Below, one piece after another: positions 420 through 63,108 of a DNA stretch of 64,000 bases (its first letter is position 1; each line of letters begins with the position of its first letter). A program made the translations under genes and the position numbers. The DNA is from an uncultured Candidatus Saccharibacteria bacterium. Lineage in GTDB: Bacteria > Patescibacteriota > CPR2 > UBA1875 > CAIMLA01. Where the stretch lies: NCBI GenBank assembly GCA_964594415.1, contig CAZQLQ010000001.1, forward strand, positions 28,850 through 92,849, written 5' to 3'. The notes under the pieces are model-generated. The model had not been told where the DNA came from. It saw only the letters and a list, made by a program, of their open reading frames with translations, and searched no databases.

Positions 420-800
420 GCCCGAGTAGTAACAAGAGTTACTAAGTCATAGCCATCCCGAGATTGTCGAGGGATCTCTTTTGGGCCTAGATCCTTCGAA
501 TCGCTTAGTTTCCTCAGGATGACAATACTATCGTTCGAGGCGAAGCCGAGAACTATCTTGTAACTTCTCGCTTTGCTCGAAGAATAATTTTTCGTGTCAT
601 CCCTGATGCCAAACCAGTAATTATATAAAGACGTCATTCTGACCGACGATTCCGATGAGCTCGTGTCGGACTCCGTCGGAGAGCTTGTCGAAGAATCTAG
701 ATTCCCGTGTCAAGCACGAGAATGACGATAGGCAGAGACCCTTCGAATCGCTTCGCTCCCTTAGCATGACAGATATTTTGTATGGATTCCTGGAATGATG
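420..800. repeat. non-coding island of GC-rich hairpin repeats (gtcattctg..gtcgaagaatct family), MITE/REP-like
   Basis: 634-698 is ~85% identical to 41249-41314. 530-590 shares 'tcgaggcgaagccgagaact..cttgtaacttctc' with 41557-41621. 'ttgtcgagggatctc' recurs at 460-478 and 41298-41316. No credible ORF; the 314..637 minus-strand ORF is spurious. Confidence 0.6.
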
Positions 801-3546: not shown

Positions 3547-3611
3547 TTCTTCGCACATTAATTTGGTATAAATAAAAAGAAGAATGTCCTGAGCGTAGTC
3601 GAAGGACAAGT

Positions 3612-4816: not shown

Positions 4817-6565
4817 ATGTCAAGCTCAGAAAAGGTTTTTTCCCCAAAGAATATTTTTGAATTGTTCTTGAATAGCGCGGAAAAATATCATAAGAAGGAA
4901 GCGCTTCGATATAAGACAGGACATTATTATGAACATTTGAGATACGAAGACTTAAAGAATGAGGTAATTTCCTTAGCAGTATCTTTAAGAAAAATGGGGC
5001 TTAAAAAAGGAGACAGGGTAATCTTGTTTTCTGAGAATAGGCCAGAATGGGTAATTTGTGATTTAGCATTTGCAGCAATCGGAGTAGTAAACGTTCCTGT
5101 TCATGTCGTTCTCTCGGTGCCTCAGTTTGTAGATATAATTAATGAAATAGAGCCGAAGGTTTTGTTTTTCTCTGGAAACAGTTCCTTGGAAAAAATCTTA
5201 GAGGCTTATAAACTGATAAACAGAATTCCTTGTACGATCTCCTATGAAAAGATTAGTTCTGAAAGAATTAGCAATTTAATCTTCTTTAAAGAGCTTATTT
5301 CGCATAAACCTTCAAAAAAAGAGGAACTGTCAGTAATAGAGCATTCTGGAGAGGTAGGGCCTACTGATCTTATTAGTATTACTTACACTTCGGGGTCTAC
5401 CGGACATCCGAAAGGCGTTAAGCTAACCCACGGGAACATAATTGAAAATATTAAATCAATAATGGATTCCTATCAAGATGATATAAAGCCAGAGGATAGG
5501 CTCTTTTCCGTTTTGCCATTGTCGCACATATTTGAAAGGACTGCGGGATATTATGTGCCATTTTGTTATGGTGCGAGTATATCTTATTGTATTGATTTAA
5601 CTGACTTTTCAAATGAGATTAAAGATATTAGGCCTACTATAATTCTTGCTGTTCCGAGACTTTTTGAAAAAATGTATGATCAAATATTAATGAAGGCAGA
5701 AGCAAATATTCTTTCAAAAATTTTATTTCGATATGCTATTTACGTTAGAACTAAAAATAGAAACAGGGTTCTTGTTGATGCGTTTGACAAATTGGTTTTT
5801 AGCAAAATTAGAAAAAACTTGGGTGGAGAGATTAGATTTTTTGTTTCAGGTGGCGCACCACTCTCACAAGAATTAGCTGAGTTTTTTGAAAAAGTAGGTC
5901 TAATTATTTTAGAAGGGTATGGACTCACTGAAACATCTCCGGTCATAGCTAGTACCAGACTAAGAGATTACCGTTTCGGGACTGTGGGCCCTGTTGTTTC
6001 GGGAGTAGATATTAGTTTCGGTAGAAACAGCGAGATCTTTGTTAAAGGGCCAAATGTATTTAGTGGATATATAAATGAAGATGATAATAAGACTTGCTTT
6101 GTTGACGGCTGGTTTAGAACAGGAGATCTTGGGCATCTCGATAGGGGAGGATGCCTAGTAATTACTGGGAGAAGGAAGGAAATGATCGTTCTTTCTACAG
6201 GGAAAAAGGTAATACCAACGACAGTAGAGGATGCCCTCGAGGATAGTGTTTATATAGAACAAGCATTTGTCTGGGGGGAAGGAAAGAAACATATTTGTGC
6301 TTTAATCGTCCCTAATTTTGAGGCGCTAAGTAGTAAGTTTAAAAAACCTACACACGAGTTAGTAGGGAATAAGGCCGTAAACTCTCTTGTCGCACTTGAA
6401 GTAAAAGAAAGAACCAAGGACTTGGCTTCTTACGAAAAAGTTAACAAGTTTGAGGTTATCAGTAATCCCTTTACCATTGATAACGGTGAACTTACTCCCA
6501 CAATGAAGCTAAGAAGGCACGTAATATATAAAAGATACAGTGACCTGATCGAAGAAATGTATTAG
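4817..6565 (+). CDS. AMP-dependent synthetase / long-chain fatty acid--CoA ligase
   Basis: The YTSGSTGHPKGV AMP-binding motif and 582 aa overall architecture match FadD-like ligases. Confidence 0.8.
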   Translation: MSSSEKVFSPKNIFELFLNSAEKYHKKEALRYKTGHYYEHLRYEDLKNEVISLAVSLRKMGLKKGDRVILFSENRPEWVICDLAFAAIGVVNVPVHVVLSVPQFVDIINEIEPKVLFFSGNSSLEKILEAYKLINRIPCTISYEKISSERISNLIFFKELISHKPSKKEELSVIEHSGEVGPTDLISITYTSGSTGHPKGVKLTHGNIIENIKSIMDSYQDDIKPEDRLFSVLPLSHIFERTAGYYVPFCYGASISYCIDLTDFSNEIKDIRPTIILAVPRLFEKMYDQILMKAEANILSKILFRYAIYVRTKNRNRVLVDAFDKLVFSKIRKNLGGEIRFFVSGGAPLSQELAEFFEKVGLIILEGYGLTETSPVIASTRLRDYRFGTVGPVVSGVDISFGRNSEIFVKGPNVFSGYINEDDNKTCFVDGWFRTGDLGHLDRGGCLVITGRRKEMIVLSTGKKVIPTTVEDALEDSVYIEQAFVWGEGKKHICALIVPNFEALSSKFKKPTHELVGNKAVNSLVALEVKERTKDLASYEKVNKFEVISNPFTIDNGELTPTMKLRRHVIYKRYSDLIEEMY

Positions 6566-10213: not shown

Positions 10214-12895
10214 GTGATAATGGAGGGTATTTATTTAACAGTTTTTGTTAGTTTGATAAACTTTATTCTAGGAATAATTATTTACATTCGGAACAGAAAG
10301 TCACCGGTAAATGTTTCTTTTGCTCTAACTGTTTTTTCTATAGTTTGTTGGACGATTTTTAATCATTTTGCTAATCAGCAAAACGATATGGCATTGCTTC
10401 TTACACGATTAACTATTATTTCTGGGCATTTAATAGCGTTTTTCTTATTCTTTTTCTTAAGGTCTTTTTTTAATTATAAGTTTAAAGAAGTAATTATATA
10501 TGGGGTGGAACTTTTGACTGCTACTAGTATTCTTCTTTCGATAACGCCGTTTTATGCTGAAGGGGTCAAATACATCCCAACTGGAACCGGAGTAACTTAT
10601 GGACCATTGATTATGGGATATTTTCTTACACTTTCGTTACTGATTATACTCAACGTCTTTGTTTTAGTGAAAGGTTACGTTTTGGCCGAGGGAACCTTGA
10701 GGAGTCAAGCCAAGTTTGTATTATTTGGAATAATATTGAGTTTATTTTTTGCAACCATAACTAACCTTTTAATACCGGTTATTTACAAGAGTCAACAATA
10801 TTCTCAGCTAGGTCCAGTATTCACAGTCTTCTTTGTTAGTTTTATTTTTTATGCCATTATAAAACATAGGCTCATGGATATTCGTTTAGTCGTTGCGAGG
10901 TCGTTATCTTATGCAGCACTACTGCTTATATTAGCTGTGTTTTACGCTACGGGCATTCTTGGCCTAGAGAGAATTATTTTCCCGAACTCCTCTGGCAGTA
11001 TCTCTATATATCAAGCTGCTTTTAGAATATCACTTACTGCTATAATTGCCTTCAGCTTTCAGCCGATAAAAAATTGGGTAACGGAAAGAACTGATAGAAT
11101 ATTTTTTAAGGGTCAATATAATTCTGAAGAGCTTTTGTCTGTTCTCTCACATGTTTTGAGTTCATCGATAGTTTTGATAGAACTTATCTACAAGGTTACA
11201 GATATTCTAATCAAAGAAATGCGAGTATCTCGTAGCATGTTTGTTCTTTTGGAAAACGAAAATAAGATATATACAACGCAGCTGAATGGTTATAAAAAAT
11301 CGATAAAAATAGAACCGAAGGATGTTTATATTTTAGCAAATCAACCAATGTTGATACTTAGTGAGCTTGAATATAATTCAAGAATCAAGAGCATTCTTGA
11401 TAAATACGATGGGGAGCTCTCTCTTCCACTAAAAACCGACAAAGGGCTCTTGGGAGTGTGGATTCTGGGGGAGAAAAACTCTGGAGAATCATATAGTCAG
11501 CAAGACTATCAGATTTTAGAAATATTAATACCAGAAATCGCAGTTGCTATAGAAAACGCAAAAGCTTACGAAGAAATCAGCGCTTTCAACAAGACGCTTA
11601 AGCAGGAAATCGAACATGCTACTCATAAACTAGAAATCCAGAATAGCGAGTTGATAAAAACGGGTCGTCAGCTTGAGGATCTGGTTAACTTTCTACCTGA
11701 TGCTACCTTTGCTATCGATACCAAAGGATGCGTAATTATCTGGAACAAGATGATGGAAGAGCTGACAGGCACTACTGCAGAGTCGATAATCGGCAAGGGT
11801 AATCGTAGATTTGCACATAGCTTTGGCTACAAAAAAGAGCTAACTCTTGCTGAACAGATATTACAGGGGAGCTTAGTAAAAAATGATCATTATAGAAGTA
11901 TAAGGAGAGAGGGAGACTCATTGTACGCTGAAGTTTATTTTTCTAACCTTAATGGCAACAAGGCATTCTTGGGAGCGAAGGCAGCTCCTTTGTATGATCA
12001 GGATCGAAATGTAGTTGGCGCAATAGAATCTCTGCGCGATATCTCGGAGATAAAAAAAGTCGAAAAAATACTTAGAAAGAGCAACGAGGAGTTACGTAAG
12101 ATCGATCTGGCAAAAGATGACTTTATCTCTATGGCCTCACATCAGCTTAGGACCCCAATTACTGCCATAAAAGGGTATCTTTCTATGCTTATTGAAGGCG
12201 ATGCCGGAGAGGTTAAGATTAGTCAATATGATTTTATTTTGGAAGCATATAGGGCCAGCAATCGCATGACCGGTCTAGTAAATGATCTTTTGAATGTTTC
12301 ACGAATGGAGGCTGGTAGATTCTTTCTAGAAGTAAATGAGGTTGATATTGACTCTATCATCCAAGAAGAGATGAAACAGCTTGAGGGAACAATAAGGGAG
12401 AAGGGGCTTTACTTTAGATACAAAAAGGGGAAAAATGTTCCCTCCGTTTCTGCTGACAAAACTAAGATACGGCAAGTTATAATGAATTTTATTGACAACT
12501 CGGTTTACTATACTAGAAAAGGTGGAATTACAGTTGAACTATATAAAGAGGGTGACGGCGTAGTTTTTATGGTTTCGGATACGGGAATAGGCGTTCCAAA
12601 AAATCAGCAATCCGGATTGTTTCAGAAATTCTATCGTGCCGATAACGCGAAGAATACACGTCCTGATGGAACCGGTCTCGGATTATTTCTAGCGAAAAAA
12701 GTTATTGAGAGCCATAGCGGTAAGATAATATTCAAATCTACTGAGGGGGTTGGATCAACGTTTGGATTTAAGATACCAATAAAGAATATGGCGAAAAAGT
12801 TTTCGGTAGTTATGCCAGAAGTTTCAAGCTTAGGAACAGCTATCTCTCAGGAGGCAACAAGGCAAAATTCTGATTTGGTAAAAAAGGAAAATTGA
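10214..12895 (+). CDS. multi-TM sensor histidine kinase with a PAS domain
   Basis: An N-terminal ~7-TM region, then a PAS segment (FAIDTKGCVIIWNKMMEELTG), then HisKA DDFISMASHQLRTPITAIKGY, then an HATPase_c G-box. Confidence 0.85.
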   Translation: MIMEGIYLTVFVSLINFILGIIIYIRNRKSPVNVSFALTVFSIVCWTIFNHFANQQNDMALLLTRLTIISGHLIAFFLFFFLRSFFNYKFKEVIIYGVELLTATSILLSITPFYAEGVKYIPTGTGVTYGPLIMGYFLTLSLLIILNVFVLVKGYVLAEGTLRSQAKFVLFGIILSLFFATITNLLIPVIYKSQQYSQLGPVFTVFFVSFIFYAIIKHRLMDIRLVVARSLSYAALLLILAVFYATGILGLERIIFPNSSGSISIYQAAFRISLTAIIAFSFQPIKNWVTERTDRIFFKGQYNSEELLSVLSHVLSSSIVLIELIYKVTDILIKEMRVSRSMFVLLENENKIYTTQLNGYKKSIKIEPKDVYILANQPMLILSELEYNSRIKSILDKYDGELSLPLKTDKGLLGVWILGEKNSGESYSQQDYQILEILIPEIAVAIENAKAYEEISAFNKTLKQEIEHATHKLEIQNSELIKTGRQLEDLVNFLPDATFAIDTKGCVIIWNKMMEELTGTTAESIIGKGNRRFAHSFGYKKELTLAEQILQGSLVKNDHYRSIRREGDSLYAEVYFSNLNGNKAFLGAKAAPLYDQDRNVVGAIESLRDISEIKKVEKILRKSNEELRKIDLAKDDFISMASHQLRTPITAIKGYLSMLIEGDAGEVKISQYDFILEAYRASNRMTGLVNDLLNVSRMEAGRFFLEVNEVDIDSIIQEEMKQLEGTIREKGLYFRYKKGKNVPSVSADKTKIRQVIMNFIDNSVYYTRKGGITVELYKEGDGVVFMVSDTGIGVPKNQQSGLFQKFYRADNAKNTRPDGTGLGLFLAKKVIESHSGKIIFKSTEGVGSTFGFKIPIKNMAKKFSVVMPEVSSLGTAISQEATRQNSDLVKKEN

Positions 12896-41233: not shown

Positions 41234-41239
41234 AAAAGT

Positions 41240-41760
41240 AAATTTTCTGTCATTCTGTCCGACGACTCCAATGAGTTCGTGTCGGACTCCGTTGGAGGAC
41301 TTGTCGAGGGATCTCATTTCTATTACTTTCTCCTTGATGAGAAAGTAATCAAAGAATCAAGAAAAACTGAACTCCTTTTTAAAAAGATTATTCTTTTTTC
41401 GATATATTATAAGGTTTTCCTAGAAAGAATAACTTTTTAAAATAGTCGGTCCTCGGGACGAACAGTTTTTCAAGGGGTTTATTGTTCGAACGAATGTGAA
41501 AACTACCAGGAAAGAGAACTTCCCACTTCGTTCGAAGAATATTGTCCGAATGCAATGAGAACTGTCTTGTAACTTCTCACTCTGTTCGAAGAATATTGTT
41601 CGAGGCGAAGCCGAGAACTACTTTTTTGTCTGTCTTTTTGTCATCCTCGCCTCCCTGTCATTCTGAGCGAAGTCGAAGAATCTCAACCACTTGTCATCCT
41701 CGCGAACGCGGGGATCTATTATCCTCCTTATCACTTTCTCTTGAAATAAAGTAGCGCAAA
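41240..41760. repeat. GC-rich hairpin repeat island, same family as 420-800
   Basis: 41249-41314 is ~85% identical to 634-698. It contains hairpin units gtcattctgagcgaagtcgaagaatctc and gtcATCCTCGCGaaCGCGGGGATct. The 70-aa ORF at 41542-41754 is probably spurious. Confidence 0.6.
41358..41469 (+). repeat. 112-bp direct repeat, copy 1 (pairs with 41764-41875)
   Basis: Identical to copy 2 except for one mismatch (aact vs acct). Confidence 0.85.
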
Positions 41761-41763
41761 GTT

Positions 41764-41875
41764 CAAGAAAAACTGAACTCCTTTTTAAAAAGATTATTCT
41801 TTTTTCGATATATTATAAGGTTTTCCTAGAAAGAATACCTTTTTAAAATAGTCGGTCCTCGGGACGAACAGTTTT
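41764..41875 (+). repeat. 112-bp direct repeat, copy 2
   Basis: See copy 1. The two copies bracket the hairpin-repeat island. Confidence 0.85.
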
Positions 41876-41949
41876 CCGGGGGAATTTTTCAAAATAAATT
41901 TAATTTCGTACACTATATTAATGACTAATTTGGCGTTATAATACTTGTT

Positions 41950-44106: not shown

Positions 44107-44187
44107 GCTTTTTTCTTTACGTAGGGATAATAGATTGTTATTATCTATATTAGGTATTAGATTTTTAAAACCTTGGAGGGCAAAGGG

Positions 44188-47100
44188 TTGTTTGGATATA
44201 AATTTAATAATTTATATATAAATGCTTGTTCTAATATAAAAAATTATAAAGTTACAAAAAAGCTTGAATATCTTACGGTATTTATATTAGTTCTTAGTAT
44301 GCTTAGCTTTCAAGCATACTCATCAACAGAACTCAGGAAATATTTATTTGGTGCTGGGAATGCATTTGCTGGTATTGAAAACGTTAGCGTTGATGTTGGT
44401 GAGGAAGATACGTGCGTAGTGAGAAGTGATGGCACGGTTTGGTGTTGGGGCTGGAACATGTATGAGAACCGCCTAGGAATACCTACTGTCGAAGGGATGT
44501 TTACTAAAGACGCACTTACACCAATTCAAGTAGTGGGTCCTGGAGGTATTGGATATCTAAATAACGTCAAGACGGTAGAAATAGGAGAAGGCCATACTTG
44601 TGCTTTGAAGAATGATGGTACTGTCTGGTGTTGGGGATATAACTATGAGGGAGAACTCGGTGATAATATGAACGAAGAATATAGTCGGACGCCTGTGCAG
44701 GTTATGGGTGCCGGTGGGGTAGGATTCTTAAGTGATATTGTTGAGATAACTATAGGTTCCGATGCTTTCTCTACTTGTGCTTTGAAGAATGATGGTACTG
44801 TCTGGTGTTGGGGATATAACTGGGCTGGTGAGCTTGGAAACGGTTTGGCTGACGTTCAAAGTAATGTTCCTATCCAGGTTGTCGGTCAGGGTGGTTTGGG
44901 GTATCTAACTAATGTGCGTTCAATATCGATGGGAGAAAATACCACTTGCGCAGCAAAAAACGACGGTACCGTATGGTGTTGGGGTAGTAATTTCGGGGGC
45001 GAACTAGGAAATGGGACGGAAAGTGTTGACAGCTATACCCCGATACAGGTAGTTGGAGTTGGGGGTACGGGGTATTTGCAAAACATCAAGTCAGTCGCGC
45101 TAGATTTTTACTCTTGTGCTTTATCGAACGAAAACACGGTTTTTTGCTGGGGTTATGGTAGTGACGGCGAATTGGGGAATGGACAAAATGTTGATAGTTA
45201 TTCGCCAGTTCAAGTTCTCGGAGTAGGCGGCGACGGATATCTGACGGACGTAAAGAAAATTGGGGTCGGGCAAGGTTTTGCATGTGCTTTGAAAAATGAT
45301 GGAACAGTGAATTGCTGGGGTAGTAATTGGTTTGGAGACGGAGCGCTAGGGGATGGTACTTCAAATGACAGTAATACCCCAGTACAGGTAAAAGACCATA
45401 GCGGTAGCGGAAGTCTTACCGGAATTACTGATTTAGATGTTGGATTTGGAGGTGTTGCGTCAATTAGTAACGATGGGCGGATTTATTTGTGGGGTGATTA
45501 TACTCTTGGTAATGGTACTTGGAACACATCCTTATTGCCAACCGCGGTTTTGTATCAAGGTGAAATTACTAGCTACTTAGATAATGTAATATCTCTTAAC
45601 GTTGGCTCTAATCTTCAGTCTTGTGTAATCAAATCGGATGGTTCATTGTTATGTTGGGGCGTATCTCAATCTATTCTAGAGTCCATTTATCCGAAGAAAA
45701 TTCCAGGCCCTAACGGACTTGGATACATGGATAGTGTGAGATCGGTTGATTGGGGAAACGAACATAGTTGTGCGGTCAAAACTGATGGAACCGTATGGTG
45801 TTGGGGAACGAATGCCTATGGCCAACTAGGAGATGAAAGCTACTCGGATAGTTATACACCCGTCCAAGTGGTAGGCGTTGGAGGAACAGGTTATCTAACC
45901 GATGTAGAAACTGTAACAACTGGACGACGATTTTCTTGTGCGCTTAAAACTGATGGTACGGTTTACTGTTGGGGATGGGGGTATAGAGGTATACTAGGTA
46001 ATAATTCTACAAATAACTCAAATACACCCGTCCAGGTGGTAGGCGTTGGAGGAACAGGTTATCTGACTAATATACTTGATGTTGATACTTTTTGGTTACA
46101 TACTTGCGCAATTAGCTCAAGTGGTAGTGCATATTGTTGGGGTGACAACGCGAATTCCAAGCTAGGAGGAACTGCTAGTGCCTACAGCTCTACGCCAGTG
46201 CAAGTTTATGGTACAGGCGGTGTTGGATATCTTGGCAATATTGATAAAATCGATACCATGGTTTCTAGCTCATGTGCTACATTGAGCGATGGAACCGTTT
46301 GGTGTTGGGGATACAATGGAGGAGGTCAGTTAGGGGACAATACGACTGCTCAACGGGATTATCCAGTTCAGGTTCATGGGGTGAATAACCTAGGTTATTT
46401 GCAGAACGTTCAAGAAACTAGCGGAGGCTGGAATCATAACTGTGCACTTACATTTGACGGACTTGTATATTGTTGGGGAAGAAATCAGGAAGGAGAGCTA
46501 GGTATAAATACTATTATTAATAGCCTTACGCCAGTGCAGGTATTGGGAAATAATGGCGTTGGAGTCTTGGAAAATATTATTGAGATTTCTTCAGGATATG
46601 ATTATTCATGTGCTCTTAATAATAATGGATATGTTTATTGTTGGGGTGGTAATGACGACTACGCTCTTGGAATTGGTTGGAGCCTAGATAAGTTGGTGCC
46701 TGTACGAGTTGCTTCTGAAATAGAGATTTGCGAATTTAGTGCTCTAGGGAGCTCTCTTTGTGCAGATAGCGGATCGTCACCGCCAACCACTATCCCTCCC
46801 ACCACCACTCCTCCTACTCCAACTACAACCAAACCAAAATCATCTCCTCTAACTCCTTTTCAACCCGTAGACGAGAATATCGCAGACGAAACTACACCTA
46901 CAACCAGTACCACAACCACGACAACCAGAGAAGAAACAGCAGAAAAGTCAAACTCTTCTTCGGAGAGCGATTCAGATAATAATAATCATGACGGATTCTT
47001 TAAAACCATTAAATCCTATGTCGTAGCTTTTCTTTCTACCTCATCCGATGCAATAGCTAAAGTAAACTACAAGATAACCTCATACTTCACTTCTTCAAAG

Positions 47101-48414
47101 GGTCTTGGTAACTTTTTGGGGATGGTTCCTCCTGCCCTAGCCAGAGTGTTCCCTTGGCTACTTTTCGCCCTCCTTATCTATCTTATCCGCAGATTAATCA
47201 AACAAACCAAGGAAGAAGGTAAGAACGCTCAAGAGATGATAAAGCTTATCGATCTCGAGAAAGCTATCGGAGTCCAGAAAGAAAACTTCGTCAGATTATC
47301 TTCTCATTACCTAAGAACCCCGTTAACAATCATCTCTACTGGCATTGATCTTATGTTTACCCTGGATAAAGTTGAGAAAGAAAAGCAAACCGACCTCTCA
47401 AACGCCCTTAAAGACCTAAATACCAAAGTAGAGGAGATCTTTTCTGATATATCCTCTAATAGATATCTAAACGAGATAACTATTCCAGATATTAAAGAGG
47501 AGAAGATCAAGATTTATGCCTCTCCTTACTTATGGCTACCGATCATCCTAATCGGAGGTATCTCCCTTCTTACCAACTACTTGTTTATCAATATCGCCAA
47601 GATTGATCTCTACACTATTAATCTTATGACCGAAGTAGCTGCCTTTCTCGTTCTTGCTCAGCTTTTCTTTTCTAACTTCAGGAAACGCCAAACCCAAAGG
47701 ATCAAGAATCAAAAATATGAGAAAGAGCTTAAGCTTCAGAAAGTCATCGATGATGCTAGAAATACCTTCATGGAGCAAGTTGCAAGGGATGTTAATGCAA
47801 AAATGATTCCGTTAGAAACCGTCCTTCCTTCGGTAGGTCAAACAGAACACAAGACTGAGATATACAAAGGCCTCTCCGACCTAAAGCAGATGATCTACAA
47901 ATTCACGCTGATTAGCAGTATCAAATCCGAAGGAGCCCTTATTAAACCGAGAGAAATTGACCTATACCGAACAGTCAACGATTATATCAAGGCTAGGCAA
48001 GAAGATATAAAGGCAAAGGGGATTAAGGTTAAACTTTCTAAATCGGACACAATCATAATAACTGACAAAGATAAGTTCTTGTTCATTATCTTCAGTATCA
48101 TCGATAACGCTATCAAGTTTTCTAAAGACAAAGGAAGCATCATTATCAACTGGGAGACAGTAGATAATCGAACTACCATAACCGTGGAAGACGACGGAAT
48201 TGGAATGACTGAAGAAGCCAAAGACCTTCTCTTTAAGCCTTTCGTTAGGGGAACATCTACCCTTAGATTTGATTATGAAGGCATGGGTACTAACCTTTAT
48301 ATCGCCAAACAGATAGCCAATTATTTAAACGGAGATATTTCCCTAGAATCAGAGATAGATAAAGGAACGAAGGTGAGTGTGGTTTCTTGTAGTTATGGTT
48401 ATAGGGTTGATTGA
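44188..48414 (+). CDS. giant sensor histidine kinase with an extracytoplasmic RCC1-repeat beta-propeller array
   Basis: A TTG start 7 nt after GGAGGG, by analogy with the paralog. A signal anchor is followed by more than 13 RCC1-like blades (GTVWCWGxNxxGELGxG...TPVQV), then a Thr/Pro linker, then TM helices. The C-terminus carries HisKA-like SSHYLRTPLTII and HATPase_c EDDGIGM..GMGTNLYIAKQI. Confidence 0.75.
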   Translation: MFGYKFNNLYINACSNIKNYKVTKKLEYLTVFILVLSMLSFQAYSSTELRKYLFGAGNAFAGIENVSVDVGEEDTCVVRSDGTVWCWGWNMYENRLGIPTVEGMFTKDALTPIQVVGPGGIGYLNNVKTVEIGEGHTCALKNDGTVWCWGYNYEGELGDNMNEEYSRTPVQVMGAGGVGFLSDIVEITIGSDAFSTCALKNDGTVWCWGYNWAGELGNGLADVQSNVPIQVVGQGGLGYLTNVRSISMGENTTCAAKNDGTVWCWGSNFGGELGNGTESVDSYTPIQVVGVGGTGYLQNIKSVALDFYSCALSNENTVFCWGYGSDGELGNGQNVDSYSPVQVLGVGGDGYLTDVKKIGVGQGFACALKNDGTVNCWGSNWFGDGALGDGTSNDSNTPVQVKDHSGSGSLTGITDLDVGFGGVASISNDGRIYLWGDYTLGNGTWNTSLLPTAVLYQGEITSYLDNVISLNVGSNLQSCVIKSDGSLLCWGVSQSILESIYPKKIPGPNGLGYMDSVRSVDWGNEHSCAVKTDGTVWCWGTNAYGQLGDESYSDSYTPVQVVGVGGTGYLTDVETVTTGRRFSCALKTDGTVYCWGWGYRGILGNNSTNNSNTPVQVVGVGGTGYLTNILDVDTFWLHTCAISSSGSAYCWGDNANSKLGGTASAYSSTPVQVYGTGGVGYLGNIDKIDTMVSSSCATLSDGTVWCWGYNGGGQLGDNTTAQRDYPVQVHGVNNLGYLQNVQETSGGWNHNCALTFDGLVYCWGRNQEGELGINTIINSLTPVQVLGNNGVGVLENIIEISSGYDYSCALNNNGYVYCWGGNDDYALGIGWSLDKLVPVRVASEIEICEFSALGSSLCADSGSSPPTTIPPTTTPPTPTTTKPKSSPLTPFQPVDENIADETTPTTSTTTTTTREETAEKSNSSSESDSDNNNHDGFFKTIKSYVVAFLSTSSDAIAKVNYKITSYFTSSKGLGNFLGMVPPALARVFPWLLFALLIYLIRRLIKQTKEEGKNAQEMIKLIDLEKAIGVQKENFVRLSSHYLRTPLTIISTGIDLMFTLDKVEKEKQTDLSNALKDLNTKVEEIFSDISSNRYLNEITIPDIKEEKIKIYASPYLWLPIILIGGISLLTNYLFINIAKIDLYTINLMTEVAAFLVLAQLFFSNFRKRQTQRIKNQKYEKELKLQKVIDDARNTFMEQVARDVNAKMIPLETVLPSVGQTEHKTEIYKGLSDLKQMIYKFTLISSIKSEGALIKPREIDLYRTVNDYIKARQEDIKAKGIKVKLSKSDTIIITDKDKFLFIIFSIIDNAIKFSKDKGSIIINWETVDNRTTITVEDDGIGMTEEAKDLLFKPFVRGTSTLRFDYEGMGTNLYIAKQIANYLNGDISLESEIDKGTKVSVVSCSYGYRVD
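46811..48385 (+). repeat. 1575-bp block nucleotide-identical to 61523-63097 (linker, TM and kinase module of both RCC1 kinases)
   Basis: Identical protein translations are seen on three independent frames (track ORFs 47307/47548/47982 equal 62019/62260/62694). The offset is constant at 14712 bp. Identity breaks after 'gtgagtgtggttt'. Confidence 0.85.
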
Positions 48415-58695: not shown

Positions 58696-61600
58696 GTGCT
58701 GTCAATTAAGCCCAGACTGGCTAGTTTATATAAGAAAAAATGTTCTGATATAAAAGATTTTAAAGTTACTAAAAAATTTGAATATTTTGTATTTTTTGCT
58801 TTTTTTATCAGTTTGTTAAGTTCTCAAGCTTATTTACCTGCAATCTTAAAATCTGATCTGCTCAAGATAAAAACTGTTCTTGCTGACGGAACGCCTGTTC
58901 AAGTTTCTGCTGGTAATGGTCATGCCTGCATTGTCAAAAGCGATGGAACTGTCTGGTGTTGGGGGGCAAATTATTATGGACAGTTAGGTGATAGTACGGA
59001 TGAGACTCGACATACCCCCATCCAGGTTGTTGGAGTGGGTGGAATCGGATTTTTGACAGACATCGTTGCTGTAAATGCTGGATGGCAGCACACTTGTGGA
59101 CTTAAAAATGACGGAACTGTTTATTGCTGGGGAGATAATGCGGATGGAGAACTTGGAAACAATGATTATACAGATAGTTATGTTCCTGTTCAGGTACTAG
59201 GAGTTGGCGGAACAGGATTTCTAAATGATATTAAGGCTATCGGAGCCGGGTACAATGACTCTTGTGCACTAACAAACAGTGGCTTGATGTATTGTTGGGG
59301 AGATAATGCGGATGGCCAGTTAGGGGACAATTCAACGACTGGAAGCCCTGTTCCTGTACAGGTGGTAGGTGCCGGAGGCGCAGGATTTCTAAATGATATT
59401 AGTAAGATTGAGCTTGGTCTTGGTCATGCATGTGCGGTTAAGAATGACGGAACGGCTTATTGTTGGGGGGATAGTTATACCCCTTTGGGTGACGGCACTT
59501 CGAATAGTAGTCAAGTCCCTGTACAGGTGGTAGGCGTTGGCGGAGTCGGGTTCTTAAGCAATATAGCAGATATTACTACGGACGACGGTTTTTCGTGCGC
59601 TTTAACAAATGATGGCTATGTATATTGTTGGGGGGATAACGGTGATGGCCAACTTGGAGATGGTAATGGCGGAACTTACGGGGATGAATCACTTACTCCT
59701 GTTCAGGTTCTTGGTGTGGGAGGTGTGGGGCTTCTCTCAAATATTCAGCACATAAGCAATGGAACTATGCATGCCTGTGCATTAGACTCAGGAGGTAATG
59801 TATATTGTTGGGGATGGAAAGAAGAAACTGGCACTAATGACGGTTCCTGGGATCCGCAAACTACACCAATACAGACACATGGCTTAGAAGATGTAGGGTT
59901 TCTATCGGATATCTTTACTTTCGCCGCAGGAGATTATTTTACTGTAGCAATTGATACAGCCGGAACTGTATATAGTTGGGGTGAAAATTATGAAGGGGAT
60001 CTCGGTGATTGGACCGAAGTTGATAGATATGTTCCTGTTAAGGTGGTCTCAAGTGCTTCCTCGGCTGGGTATCTAGATAATGTCGTAGGCGTTGGGACGG
60101 CTGATGATGGATCCTGTATTATTAAGGATGACGGAACAGTTTGGTGCTGGGGGAATGGCGAACCCGTGCCTGTCCAATTGAGGGGACCAGGAGGAGTGGG
60201 TTTCTTTGAGGATGCCGTTTCGATTAGCAAAAGTGCAATGGGTAATCATTTTTGTGTTGTTAAAAGCGACGGAACGGTATGGTGTTGGGGGAGTAACTCA
60301 GATGGACAACTCGGTGATGGTACAACAACAAGTAGCTATGATTATCCTATACAAGTTGTCGGAGAAGGTGGTGTGGGGTATTTGACAGATGTTAAGATGG
60401 TCTCGGGTGCGTATTTCGGTACTTGTGCTCTTAAAAATGATGGTACGGTGTGGTGCTGGGGGTATAATGGCGGCGGTGCATTAGGAAATAACAGCACTAC
60501 TGATGTGTATACTCCGGTGCAAGTACATGGAGTTAATGACGTCGGATTTTTAACTGACATAAAATATATTTCAACTGGCGGATATCACGGCTGTGCAATA
60601 AAAACGGATGATTCTCTATACTGTTGGGGAAGTAATAGTAGCGGTCAACTTGGTGATAATACGACTTTAAATAAATTGACTCCCATCCAAGTCTTAGGAG
60701 CTGGCGGCATTGGTAATCTTACCGATGTCAGAAGCGTGGCGATGGGGTGGCTGCATACATGCGCTTCAAAAAACGACGGTACTGCTTATTGTTGGGGGAG
60801 AAATTATGCGGGTCAAGTCGGCAATGGCGTAATCGGCGGATTCGGTTCTCATGTAGATGCTCCTAGCCAAGTTATAGGAGTAGGAGGGGTAGGATATTTA
60901 ACAGGCGTTGATACGGTAGCAGCATCCAGAGACGGGTCTTATGCTAAGATGCTTGATGATACGGCGTTTTATTGGGGAGGTACCCCTACACAGCGTTCAG
61001 GTGTTGAAGACGAGCAGTATCTTGTTAATGTTGCTGATATTGCAGGAGGTTATTCGCATCTAGTTTCTCTTTTGAATGACGGAACGGTATATTGTACGGG
61101 TTGGGGTAGTGGTAACGGATGGGACAGCGATTCTTTGGTTTGGTCAGGTATTAATGCATGTTATTTCAATGCCTATGGAGACCCAATTTGCTCTAGTGGT
61201 CCGTCTCCTTCACAAAGTGCTGCCAATTCTGTCATTTCAGGCAGTGAAACAGGTAACTTAGTTACGATTACTGTAACAATCCACGATACGGACGATAATC
61301 CATATACTTCAGGTGGTGACACGGTCACAGTCCTCATAACTGGAGCAAATCCATCTACTCCATCAGTAATAGATAATAGTGACGGAACCTATACTGTAAC
61401 TTATACTTCAACAAGTGACGGTACTGACATAGTAACAGCTACTTTAAACGGAGTTGCAATTGGTAATGATACCGATGGGGTAAGTGACGGAGTCTATCAT
61501 TTGAATGTTACTGCTCCTTTTTCTCCTACTCCAACTACAACCAAACCAAAATCATCTCCTCTAACTCCTTTTCAACCCGTAGACGAGAATATCGCAGACG

Positions 61601-63108
61601 AAACTACACCTACAACCAGTACCACAACCACGACAACCAGAGAAGAAACAGCAGAAAAGTCAAACTCTTCTTCGGAGAGCGATTCAGATAATAATAATCA
61701 TGACGGATTCTTTAAAACCATTAAATCCTATGTCGTAGCTTTTCTTTCTACCTCATCCGATGCAATAGCTAAAGTAAACTACAAGATAACCTCATACTTC
61801 ACTTCTTCAAAGGGTCTTGGTAACTTTTTGGGGATGGTTCCTCCTGCCCTAGCCAGAGTGTTCCCTTGGCTACTTTTCGCCCTCCTTATCTATCTTATCC
61901 GCAGATTAATCAAACAAACCAAGGAAGAAGGTAAGAACGCTCAAGAGATGATAAAGCTTATCGATCTCGAGAAAGCTATCGGAGTCCAGAAAGAAAACTT
62001 CGTCAGATTATCTTCTCATTACCTAAGAACCCCGTTAACAATCATCTCTACTGGCATTGATCTTATGTTTACCCTGGATAAAGTTGAGAAAGAAAAGCAA
62101 ACCGACCTCTCAAACGCCCTTAAAGACCTAAATACCAAAGTAGAGGAGATCTTTTCTGATATATCCTCTAATAGATATCTAAACGAGATAACTATTCCAG
62201 ATATTAAAGAGGAGAAGATCAAGATTTATGCCTCTCCTTACTTATGGCTACCGATCATCCTAATCGGAGGTATCTCCCTTCTTACCAACTACTTGTTTAT
62301 CAATATCGCCAAGATTGATCTCTACACTATTAATCTTATGACCGAAGTAGCTGCCTTTCTCGTTCTTGCTCAGCTTTTCTTTTCTAACTTCAGGAAACGC
62401 CAAACCCAAAGGATCAAGAATCAAAAATATGAGAAAGAGCTTAAGCTTCAGAAAGTCATCGATGATGCTAGAAATACCTTCATGGAGCAAGTTGCAAGGG
62501 ATGTTAATGCAAAAATGATTCCGTTAGAAACCGTCCTTCCTTCGGTAGGTCAAACAGAACACAAGACTGAGATATACAAAGGCCTCTCCGACCTAAAGCA
62601 GATGATCTACAAATTCACGCTGATTAGCAGTATCAAATCCGAAGGAGCCCTTATTAAACCGAGAGAAATTGACCTATACCGAACAGTCAACGATTATATC
62701 AAGGCTAGGCAAGAAGATATAAAGGCAAAGGGGATTAAGGTTAAACTTTCTAAATCGGACACAATCATAATAACTGACAAAGATAAGTTCTTGTTCATTA
62801 TCTTCAGTATCATCGATAACGCTATCAAGTTTTCTAAAGACAAAGGAAGCATCATTATCAACTGGGAGACAGTAGATAATCGAACTACCATAACCGTGGA
62901 AGACGACGGAATTGGAATGACTGAAGAAGCCAAAGACCTTCTCTTTAAGCCTTTCGTTAGGGGAACATCTACCCTTAGATTTGATTATGAAGGCATGGGT
63001 ACTAACCTTTATATCGCCAAACAGATAGCCAATTATTTAAACGGAGATATTTCCCTAGAATCAGAGATAGATAAAGGAACGAAGGTGAGTGTGGTTTTAA
63101 ACAAATAA
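58696..63108 (+). CDS. giant sensor histidine kinase with an RCC1-repeat beta-propeller array plus a Big-like domain (paralog of 44188-48414)
   Basis: A GTG start 7 nt after GGAGGG. An RCC1-like repeat array (GTVWCWGxNxxGQLGDG), then an Ig-like segment (TITVTIHDTDDNPYTSGGDTVTV..). The linker/TM/HisKA/HATPase module is identical to the paralog. Confidence 0.75.
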   Translation: MLSIKPRLASLYKKKCSDIKDFKVTKKFEYFVFFAFFISLLSSQAYLPAILKSDLLKIKTVLADGTPVQVSAGNGHACIVKSDGTVWCWGANYYGQLGDSTDETRHTPIQVVGVGGIGFLTDIVAVNAGWQHTCGLKNDGTVYCWGDNADGELGNNDYTDSYVPVQVLGVGGTGFLNDIKAIGAGYNDSCALTNSGLMYCWGDNADGQLGDNSTTGSPVPVQVVGAGGAGFLNDISKIELGLGHACAVKNDGTAYCWGDSYTPLGDGTSNSSQVPVQVVGVGGVGFLSNIADITTDDGFSCALTNDGYVYCWGDNGDGQLGDGNGGTYGDESLTPVQVLGVGGVGLLSNIQHISNGTMHACALDSGGNVYCWGWKEETGTNDGSWDPQTTPIQTHGLEDVGFLSDIFTFAAGDYFTVAIDTAGTVYSWGENYEGDLGDWTEVDRYVPVKVVSSASSAGYLDNVVGVGTADDGSCIIKDDGTVWCWGNGEPVPVQLRGPGGVGFFEDAVSISKSAMGNHFCVVKSDGTVWCWGSNSDGQLGDGTTTSSYDYPIQVVGEGGVGYLTDVKMVSGAYFGTCALKNDGTVWCWGYNGGGALGNNSTTDVYTPVQVHGVNDVGFLTDIKYISTGGYHGCAIKTDDSLYCWGSNSSGQLGDNTTLNKLTPIQVLGAGGIGNLTDVRSVAMGWLHTCASKNDGTAYCWGRNYAGQVGNGVIGGFGSHVDAPSQVIGVGGVGYLTGVDTVAASRDGSYAKMLDDTAFYWGGTPTQRSGVEDEQYLVNVADIAGGYSHLVSLLNDGTVYCTGWGSGNGWDSDSLVWSGINACYFNAYGDPICSSGPSPSQSAANSVISGSETGNLVTITVTIHDTDDNPYTSGGDTVTVLITGANPSTPSVIDNSDGTYTVTYTSTSDGTDIVTATLNGVAIGNDTDGVSDGVYHLNVTAPFSPTPTTTKPKSSPLTPFQPVDENIADETTPTTSTTTTTTREETAEKSNSSSESDSDNNNHDGFFKTIKSYVVAFLSTSSDAIAKVNYKITSYFTSSKGLGNFLGMVPPALARVFPWLLFALLIYLIRRLIKQTKEEGKNAQEMIKLIDLEKAIGVQKENFVRLSSHYLRTPLTIISTGIDLMFTLDKVEKEKQTDLSNALKDLNTKVEEIFSDISSNRYLNEITIPDIKEEKIKIYASPYLWLPIILIGGISLLTNYLFINIAKIDLYTINLMTEVAAFLVLAQLFFSNFRKRQTQRIKNQKYEKELKLQKVIDDARNTFMEQVARDVNAKMIPLETVLPSVGQTEHKTEIYKGLSDLKQMIYKFTLISSIKSEGALIKPREIDLYRTVNDYIKARQEDIKAKGIKVKLSKSDTIIITDKDKFLFIIFSIIDNAIKFSKDKGSIIINWETVDNRTTITVEDDGIGMTEEAKDLLFKPFVRGTSTLRFDYEGMGTNLYIAKQIANYLNGDISLESEIDKGTKVSVVLNK
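61523..63097 (+). repeat. second copy of the 1575-bp identical block
   Basis: See 46811-48385. Confidence 0.85.

Follow-up and report, generated by a model that had tools for sequence, protein, structure and literature searches.

Two intergenic arrays of CGTC/TGTC-tagged hairpin repeats in a Candidatus Saccharibacteria contig: probable members of the REP superfamily recognized by Ssn-type nucleases

What kind of element are the hairpin repeats that crowd two intergenic regions in a 64,000-nt stretch of contig CAZQLQ010000001.1, from an uncultured Candidatus Saccharibacteria bacterium, and what might act on them? A sequence-only reading of this stretch (hereafter the window, meaning the whole stretch analysed) had described a dispersed family of REP- or MITE-like hairpins (repetitive extragenic palindromes or miniature inverted-repeat transposable elements). 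We consider it likely that the repeats are CGTC/TGTC-tagged REPs, belonging to the superfamily of Neisseria dRS3/NTS, Rickettsia RPE-4/-6 and the Ssn-related motifs (SRM), that they are combined as mosaics in arrays, and that they are recognized by an Ssn-type nuclease. The comparison with REPs has thus been upheld and sharpened to the CGTC-tagged REP/SRM superfamily, whereas the comparison with MITEs has not, as no target-site duplication was found.

The repeats make up array A, an intergenic mosaic at ~445-772, and array B, an intergenic mosaic at 41248-41889; a degenerate solitary copy lies at 3585-3609. Read on both strands, a window unit consists of (C/T)GTC, AT(T/C)C(T/C), a stem-loop, (A/G)G(A/G)AT and C(T). 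Under a strict definition (GTCAT[TC]C followed by a stem of 5 bp or more and by ATC) the window contains 7 matches where 0.295 are expected (the highest of 200 resamples was 2), and six of the seven fall inside the two arrays. The string GTCATYCY alone occurs 15 times against 6.3 expected, a count reached by 0 of 100 shuffles. The units are therefore dispersed and more frequent than chance and, as had been noted earlier, all of them lie between genes. The GC richness that had been ascribed to every copy holds for the hairpin blocks (44-46%, against 37.9% in the window and 20-32% in other spacers) and fails for a 142-nt module within array B (28-32%).

The two arrays resolve into four types of piece: (i) short tagged hairpins, including heads cut off at 595-612 and 41639-41655; (ii) a tagged unit with a conserved loop insert of ~40 nt, at 632-698 and 41248-41314; (iii) a 54-nt long hairpin, at 533-586 and in ~2.5 repeats at 41480-41625; and (iv) the AT-rich 142-nt module, two copies of which bracket the hairpin block of array B. 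The modules quoted by the sequence-only reading lie where it had placed them, with 3585-3609 as a degenerate member. A repeat search of the window recovered a 66-nt unit (633-698 versus 41249-41314, 86% identity), a 44-nt module (548-591 versus 41557-41600, 86% identity) and a 142-nt direct repeat (41342-41483 versus 41748-41889, 90% identity). The tag is CGTC at 632-635 (+) and 724-727 (-), and TGTC at 521-524 (-), 769-772 (-), 41248, 41639, 41656, 41692 and 3585. All full units begin with AT and end with AT, which the degenerate copy does not, and the tails read CTC, CTA or CTAG. Array A holds two tail-to-tail inverted pairs, 445-478/487-524 and 632-698/697-727. Perfect stems are found in 697-727 (9 bp, 5-nt loop) and 41692-41719 (8 bp, 4-nt loop); by nearest-neighbour energies these two units, the former on the minus strand, and the 54-nt hairpins fold better than shuffles (z -2.2 to -3.9). 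Between the two 66-nt copies, a G-to-A change at 653/41269 is offset by a C-to-T change at 677/41293, and in a third copy, in contig L131, the outer stem differs yet remains complementary. The 66-nt composite is rare outside the window's lineage, since a metagenome scan with its core matched that one contig only.

The lead to a known family came from a gonococcal sequence (PMC7593972) containing CGTCATTCCCGCGAAAGCGGGAATCTAG, which pointed to dRS3 and the Neisseria intergenic mosaic elements (NIME; PMC1797815) and then to the CGTC-tagged REPs of Di Nocera, De Gregorio & Rocco (2013, BMC Genomics 14:522; PMC3733652). These are defined by an unpaired CGTC/TGTC tag (variants TGTC and CCTC) and a stem of 8-9 bp opening with complementary A and T, with a 4-5-nt loop and a 3-nt tail of consensus CCA. 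They occur mainly as inverted dimers, often heterodimers, with complementary spacer ends, are intergenic near the 3' ends of open reading frames (ORFs), and have no dedicated transposase (PMC3733652). CGTC-1 is dRS3 in Neisseria, CGTC-1 and CGTC-4 are RPE-6 and RPE-4 in Rickettsia, and the 2013 survey comprised 5 phyla, mostly Alphaproteobacteria (PMC3733652). The window units resemble them in the unpaired CGTC/TGTC tag, the A/T stem start and the short 3' tail, as well as in forming inverted dimers of unlike partners with complementary spacer ends, lying at the 3' end of the upstream ORF and lacking an adjacent transposase. On the other hand, only two window units have the canonical 8-9-bp stem with a 4-5-nt loop; others have a 5-bp Watson-Crick stem with a GAG/CGA and CGNAG core, or a 40-nt insert, and the composites and 54-nt hairpins fall outside the 8-9-bp format. 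The host also differs, resembling members of the candidate phyla radiation (CPR), and the units are arrayed, whereas arrays are rare outside Neisseria and Wolbachia (PMC3733652).

An enzyme for this superfamily was described by Chenal et al. (2025, Nat Commun 16:2388; PMC11893778), who found the sites of SsnA to be an extended dRS3 (NTS, CGTCATTCCCGCGMAVGCGGGAATCYRG) and its SRM relatives. SsnA is a single-domain GIY-YIG nuclease of 94 aa that cuts a few nucleotides upstream of the hairpin, which it binds strand-specifically and only as single-stranded DNA (ssDNA), not as RNA or double-stranded DNA; binding depends critically on the C that follows the palindrome, and cleavage on the 3 nt that precede it (PMC11893778). 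Its gene is usually bracketed by its own motifs in the manner of an insertion sequence, and it modulates transformation of N. meningitidis (PMC11893778). A search of the PDB returned no SsnA structure, only remote UPF0213 proteins. The positions critical for SsnA, GTC before the stem and C after it, are the invariant ones in our unit collection, and the published SRM search sequence, HGTCWYN(0-2)YYVSBRHN(0-5)WNVSBRGN(0-2)RNCYNB, has 2 window matches (697-727 on the minus strand and 41692-41719 on the plus strand) where 0.11 are expected. The likeness to NTS/SRM lies in tag, stem base and tail, as a comparison of 697-727 (CGTCATTC...GGGAATCTAG) with the NTS shows, and in SsnA homologues of CPR bacteria that are flanked by the window's class of unit (see below); the differences are that the window has no ssn gene and that the commonest class of unit, here and across phyla, escapes the SRM search sequence.

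Comparison with two other systems narrows the assignment further. In NIME, dRS3 (ATTCCCNNNNNNNNGGGAAT) flanks RS repeats of 50-150 bp (PMC1797815). The window arrays similarly alternate GC-richer hairpins (44-46%) with AT-richer spacer modules (28-32%) and adjoin lineage-specific or variable genes and a synteny break, a likeness that is one of analogy only; decayed, tag-less derivatives such as the 54-nt hairpins, interspersed with AT-rich spacers, would correspond to what is seen in Neisseria. In contrast to NIME, no exact dRS3 (ATTCCCN8GGGAAT) occurs on either window strand, the arrays are short (0.35-0.65 kb), and the spacer modules bear no relation to neisserial RS. With GTAG-tagged REPs, REPINs and RAYT the repeats have in common a tag plus hairpin, inverted doublets, loops of the GCGNAGC type (as in classical enterobacterial REPs) and a presumed recognition of the ssDNA hairpin by a small enzyme that is present in single copy and works in trans, but the tag is (C/T)GTC and the enzyme superfamily is GIY-YIG, not HUH/Y1.

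How far does the family extend beyond the window? Reference genomes were scanned with the pattern GTCATYCTGAGCGNAGN{1,3}GAAGRATC, which matched at least 120 stretches (L010-L129) from ~19 phyla among the matches listed. Those listed include Nitrospirota, Chloroflexota, Acidobacteriota, Patescibacteria (Saccharibacteria and Gracilibacteria), Omnitrophota, Bacteroidota, Bacillota, Planctomycetota, Verrucomicrobiota, Gemmatimonadota, Pseudomonadota, Desulfobacterota, Fibrobacterota, Armatimonadota and others; cultured isolates are among them, as are closed chromosomes, for instance OZ251550.1, OZ242191.1 and OZ244817.1. In 0.92 Mb of these listed matches the strict finder identified 258 units, compared with 2 in shuffled sequence. 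Most frequent are forms that read GTCAT(T/C)CTGAGCGNAGCGAAG(A/G)ATC, in which N takes all four bases, and among the matches listed this GAG-CGNAG-CGA class is almost unchanged across ~19 phyla and usually present as inverted pairs. The scan pattern imposes no pairing between the Y and R stem positions, so that their association can be tested without bias: they covary, with C-G in 88 units, T-A in 66 and other combinations in 7 (C-A 5, T-G 2). The units in the window are thus neither the only copies nor devoid of conserved structure. In 271 units from other genomes GTC is preceded by T in 72% and by C in 20%, and the tail reads C, then T in 75%, then C in 49%. Tail-to-tail is the arrangement of 59 of 89 neighbouring pairs (the others number 16, 10 and 4), mostly with gaps of 10-45 nt, and the spacer ends are complementary (3.9 of 6 positions versus 2.2; the observed value was reached by 0 of 2000 permutations). 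The exact DNA string had no match in the literature. Viral contigs (IMG/VR) also contain the same 25-27-nt unit, in 9 stretches (L001-L009), five of which have several ORF families in common; phages could be vehicles that spread the unit between phyla.

The interior of the canonical 25-nt unit holds GCGNAGC, and d(GCGNAGC) is an extraordinarily stable DNA mini-hairpin with a GNA triloop in which the middle base is free (PMC13037366). The free N of CGNAG in our census is as expected for such a triloop. We propose that d(TGTCATTCTGAGCGAAGCGAAGAATCTC) could form a hairpin with tandem G.A pairs and a GNA triloop; the window variant carries GAAGTCGA. The units of this class fit the '8 + 5 + 8' format only if the two G/A mismatches are counted as stem.

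Because the published SRM search sequence misses the GAG-CGNAG-CGA class, the link of this class to Ssn was tested separately. In a Gracilibacteria metagenome-assembled genome (L032), a GIY-YIG gene (Pfam E 4e-16) lies inside an array of such units, and its last codons run into a unit on the opposite strand; its family comprises at least 7956 clusters at E<=1e-10, and the best-listed of these share 58-68% identity with its product and belong to very distant phyla. In Parcubacteria (L138-L145, e.g., L139 at 4860-5380), a 99-aa GIY-YIG gene has tagged hairpins on both sides, and this SRM-ssn-SRM cassette is embedded in a diversity-generating retroelement, with bAvd on one side and the template repeat plus reverse transcriptase on the other, in an identical arrangement in at least eight contigs of different samples. 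Another Patescibacteria contig has two GIY-YIG copies amid tagged hairpins. The CPR loci with a unit-flanked GIY-YIG gene of the cd10448 type are L032, L136 and L138-L145. A tblastn search of plasmid records turned up the gonococcal gene, in a chromosome that had been deposited as a plasmid: a 94-aa ORF with NTS copies on both sides, the arrangement described for ssnA. Over its full length this ORF shares 40% identity with the Gracilibacteria protein (E 1e-20) and 44% with the Parcubacteria protein (E 2e-24). The unit-flanked genes and these identities show that CPR bacteria carry Ssn homologues flanked by the window's class of unit. The association of the units with Ssn rests on these targeted loci and on the literature.

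Several observations weigh against assigning the window repeats to an Ssn system. The window itself contains no Ssn or GIY-YIG gene or remnant (best tblastn E 4.7), and a 121-sequence profile compared with its six frames gave a best E of 0.92, against 1e-29 to 1e-46 for positive controls. Among 120 randomly matched loci an Ssn gene was found in 2, no more than chance. The SRM search sequence matches 0 of 150 GAG-CGNAG-CGA units from 120 genome loci, and it also misses most units of the window, whether they are of the GAG...CGA class, composite or tag-less. The GAG...CGA units have a stem of only 5 bp, with z near 0 or positive, so that the stable hairpin formerly claimed for each copy is a property of the perfect-stem units and the 54-nt hairpins and not of these. 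Decay is visible in units 735-772, 595-612 and 41639-41655, the window's own variant has GCGAAGT instead of GCGAAGC, and the window tail is CTC or CTA where the consensus of Di Nocera et al. is CCA.

If the repeats are nonetheless sites of an Ssn-type nuclease, a mechanism can be proposed by homology to the Neisseria system. The tagged strand, once single-stranded (as lagging-strand template or as incoming transforming or conjugative DNA), would fold into a hairpin; a single-domain GIY-YIG nuclease of the Ssn family, ~95 aa long, would bind the stem and the 3' C and cut a few nucleotides 5' of the tag. Cutting would modulate recombination of the DNA that carries the site. The nuclease would probably also seed new copies, given the resemblance of the SRM-ssn-SRM cassette to an insertion sequence. 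The window sites would depend on a nuclease copy elsewhere in the genome, or they would be orphans; we infer that a partner nuclease may be encoded elsewhere in the source genome. A bolder extension, to which we give a low probability, is that the GAG-CGNAG-CGA class and its ~95-aa GIY-YIG gene are an actively and horizontally spreading mobile element with a new mechanism, GIY-YIG-driven transposition or homing of ssDNA hairpins, and that the window arrays are its non-autonomous progeny. Two findings count for it: the 58-68% protein identity across phyla and the cassettes inside the Parcubacteria retroelement. If it is true, arrays carried by a CPR bacterium that scavenges DNA could control which of the incoming DNA is recombined.

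The orphan state is a serious alternative in its own right, though we rate it as unlikely: the family would once have spread with an Ssn-type or other enzyme since lost from this lineage, and the arrays would persist and rearrange only by slippage and homologous recombination. In its favour, the window has no nuclease gene, several units are truncated or stem-broken, tag-less derivatives have been tandemly amplified, and close relatives have one unit or none. Moreover, 19% of genomes with more than 200 SRMs have no Ssn homologue (Chenal 2025, PMC11893778), and the CGTC families have been considered as perhaps heading for extinction (Di Nocera 2013, PMC3733652). However, two units retain perfect stems of 8-9 bp with tag and tail intact, the compensatory change between the 66-nt copies suggests that structure is still constrained, and Ssn homologues are common in Patescibacteria.

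A role at the RNA level, which may coexist with nuclease recognition, appears rather improbable as the explanation of the arrays. Transcribed hairpins at gene 3' ends would stabilize the upstream mRNA or attenuate read-through, roles that have been proposed for many REPs. The arrays are indeed associated with gene ends, beginning 15-30 nt past stop codons between co-directional genes; the tagged units of array B are all on the transcribed strand, and the outer stem of 41248-41314 requires pairs of the G-U type (ATTCT/GGGAT). Location and G-T pairs are also the grounds on which Di Nocera 2013 argues for RNA roles (PMC3733652). Yet the units of array A lie on both strands, and there is no Rfam match: at gathering and E<=1 thresholds, Rfam searches returned tRNAs and chance-level matches only. 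Invariance of the unpaired tag and tail, together with freedom at the N of GCGNAGC, argues for a DNA hairpin recognized by a protein, and SsnA does not bind RNA (PMC11893778). The stems are not followed by T-runs and the terminator scan was empty at the units, which speaks against the RNA role and led us to reject intrinsic terminators, a function suggested by the sequence-only reading.

Mobilization as REPINs or MITEs, by a RAYT/IS200-type Y1 enzyme or by a DDE transposase acting on inverted pairs, is very improbable: inverted pairs with a short spacer do resemble REPINs and GCGNAGC loops occur in classical GTAG REPs too, but the tag is (C/T)GTC, not GTAG, ORF clustering of 129 loci revealed no protein family and no transposase family recurring beside the units, no RAYT is flanked by CGTC units (Di Nocera 2013, PMC3733652), and there is no target-site duplication. 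There are no direct repeats around 49 doublets, and a TA target was rejected too, because the T...A flanks of the doublets belong to the tags themselves, each partner contributing the fourth base of its TGTC tag. Judged from the sequence alone, integron attC sites were dropped (the units have no RYYYAAC/GTTRRRY core sites), as were CRISPR (the spacing is irregular) and an assembly artefact (both arrays lie in the interior of a long contig, and isolate genomes and complete chromosomes have the family too).

Table 1. Repeat units and modules of arrays A and B and the solitary copy, by position in the window
Position	Strand	Feature	Evidence	Remarks
445-478	+	Degenerate tagged unit: aGTCAT, 4-nt insertion (agcc), hairpin ATCCCGAGATTGTCGAGGGAT, CTC	Sequence reading, fold	Left partner of inverted pair, tail-to-tail with 487-524, 9-nt spacer
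487-524	-	Tagged unit TGTCATCCTGAGGAAACTAAGCGATTCGAAGGATCTAG; TGTC tag, ATCCT/AGGAT stem, C-T tail	Sequence reading, unit finder	
533-586	+	54-nt long hairpin, inverted dimer of tag-less derivative (ATTsTTCGAG-GCGAAGC-CGAGAAsT)	Repeat families D16, D20	RNA fold -19.8 kcal/mol, z -2.7; DNA fold z -2.2; includes GCGAAGC
595-612	+	Truncated unit, head alone: TGTCATCCC	Sequence reading	
632-698	+	66-nt composite: CGTC tag, ATTCT/AGAAT outer stem, ~40-nt loop insert	Repeat family D13	
697-727	-	Perfect-stem unit CGTCATTCTCGTGCTTGACACGGGAATCTAG; matches published SRM search sequence	SRM pattern match	DNA fold -6.2 kcal/mol, z -3.85; CTAG tail shared with 632-698; tag and tail identical to gonococcal NTS CGTCATTCCCGCGCAGGCGGGAATCTAG
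735-772	-	Tagged unit TGTCATGCTAAGGGAGCGAAGCGATTCGAAGGGTCTCT, subfamily of 487-524; stem decayed, fold poor; includes GAGCGAAGCGA	Sequence reading, fold	
3585-3609	+	Degenerate unit TGTC-CTGAGCGTAGTCGAAGG-ACA	Sequence reading; DNA fold z -2.5	Retains TGTC tag and family core (CCTGAGCGTAGTCGAAGG) without AT/AT stem base; 39 nt after tRNA-Lys, directly before a terminator-like hairpin; core matches variants of other genomes, e.g. GTCATCCTGAGCGGAGTCGAAGGATC
41248-41314	+	66-nt composite copy 2, TGTC tag, 15 nt past 4Fe-4S gene stop	RNA fold z -2.2	
41342-41483	+	AT-rich 142-nt module copy 1, spacer or RS-like	Repeat family D10	
41480-41625	+	Five tag-less derivative units, orientation alternating: two full 54-nt hairpins and one half	Repeat families D16, D20	DNA fold -20.8 kcal/mol, z -3.1
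41639-41655	+	Truncated unit TGTCATCCTCGCCTCCC	Sequence reading	
41656-41684	+	Unit TGTCATTCTGAGCGAAGTCGAAGAATCTC, GAG-CGNAG-CGA class; identical variant in other phyla	Unit finder	
41692-41719	+	Perfect-stem unit TGTCATCCTCGCGAACGCGGGGATCTAT; matches published SRM search sequence	SRM pattern match	RNA fold z -3.1; DNA fold z -2.3
41748-41889	+	AT-rich 142-nt module copy 2, directly upstream of UvrD/PcrA gene	Repeat family D10	

The coordinates in Table 1 place the arrays in a window with 47 genes on the plus strand and 12 on the minus strand. Array A starts ~30 nt after the stop codon of the acetate kinase gene and has an ORFan gene (891-1337) on its other side, for which a search of 5.8 billion protein clusters found only its own sequence. 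The earlier statement that the repeats flank a small island of two hypothetical genes is loosely right: array A precedes the ORFan and a second gene without a family (1364-1735), but the other flank is the single degenerate unit at 3585-3609, 1.8 kb beyond the island, on the far side of a methyltransferase gene and two tRNA genes. The two island proteins matched no Pfam or NCBIfam family and gave a single marginal PHROG match (E 0.0038). The second island gene ends in ~23 glycines, encoded by a (GGC/GGT)n tract (GGC run 1652-1729) that is likely a slippage-prone site.

Array B starts 15 nt past the stop codon of the pyruvate:ferredoxin oxidoreductase (PFOR) delta (4Fe-4S) gene and extends toward uvrD/pcrA. 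In a syntenic relative whose UvrD is 71% identical (L133, 9679-10000), the order is PFOR-delta, a 90-aa SWEET/PQ-loop transporter gene and uvrD, with spacers of 2 and 47 nt at the SWEET gene and no units in 22 kb. The window counterpart of this interval is a 716-bp repeat array (41234-41949); a remnant of the SWEET gene within array B was rejected (tblastn E>0.8). The window also differs from this relative by an RCC1-histidine kinase gene (44173-48414) inserted after uvrD. In a relative with 83% identity, uvrD directly follows alaS, and one unit is present elsewhere on that contig. As the relative L133 has the SWEET gene and no repeats at the site of array B, the arrays are lineage-specific, and this repeat-free interval together with the gene differences shows that array B marks a lineage-specific rearrangement.

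The 142-nt module is not a hairpin unit, and it has no Rfam match. Its conserved core, TCAAGAAAAACTGAACT(C)CTTTTTAAAAA, is followed by a variable hairpin and, in three of four copies (not that of L132), by GTCGGTCCNCGGGACGARCAGTTTTT. The core is also present in L131 (~1925-2085) and L132 (~11290-11470), and each copy lies just upstream of genes: uvrD, tRNA genes and obg. The module has a weak promoter-like site, and its last segment, where present, is terminator-like; possible identities of the module are a small RNA and a promoter cassette. Elsewhere in the window there is an exact duplicate of 1575 bp (46811-48385 and 61523-63097), which covers the C-terminal ~525 codons of two giant RCC1-repeat genes, identical at the DNA level. 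In a Pfam scan, the RCC1-repeat gene at 44173-48414 has an HATPase_c domain within the duplicated stretch. Either recent gene conversion or assembly collapse accounts for this duplicate.

Both the repeat family and the enzyme have been described (2013 and 2025), and the finding on its own is ordinary. What is new is the CPR-like host, the presence of NIME-like arrays in a bacterium other than Neisseria and Wolbachia, where they lie at a synteny break and beside an ORFan gene, and the fact that the most widespread class of unit escapes the published SRM search sequence. Since that search sequence misses the GAG-CGNAG-CGA units flanking the Ssn homologues of CPR bacteria, current censuses of Ssn target sites and SRM counts per genome are probably underestimates. 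Substrates and enzymes from CPR bacteria are now at hand for tests of Ssn specificity, which bears both on tools for ssDNA and on DNA uptake by organisms that live on scavenged DNA.

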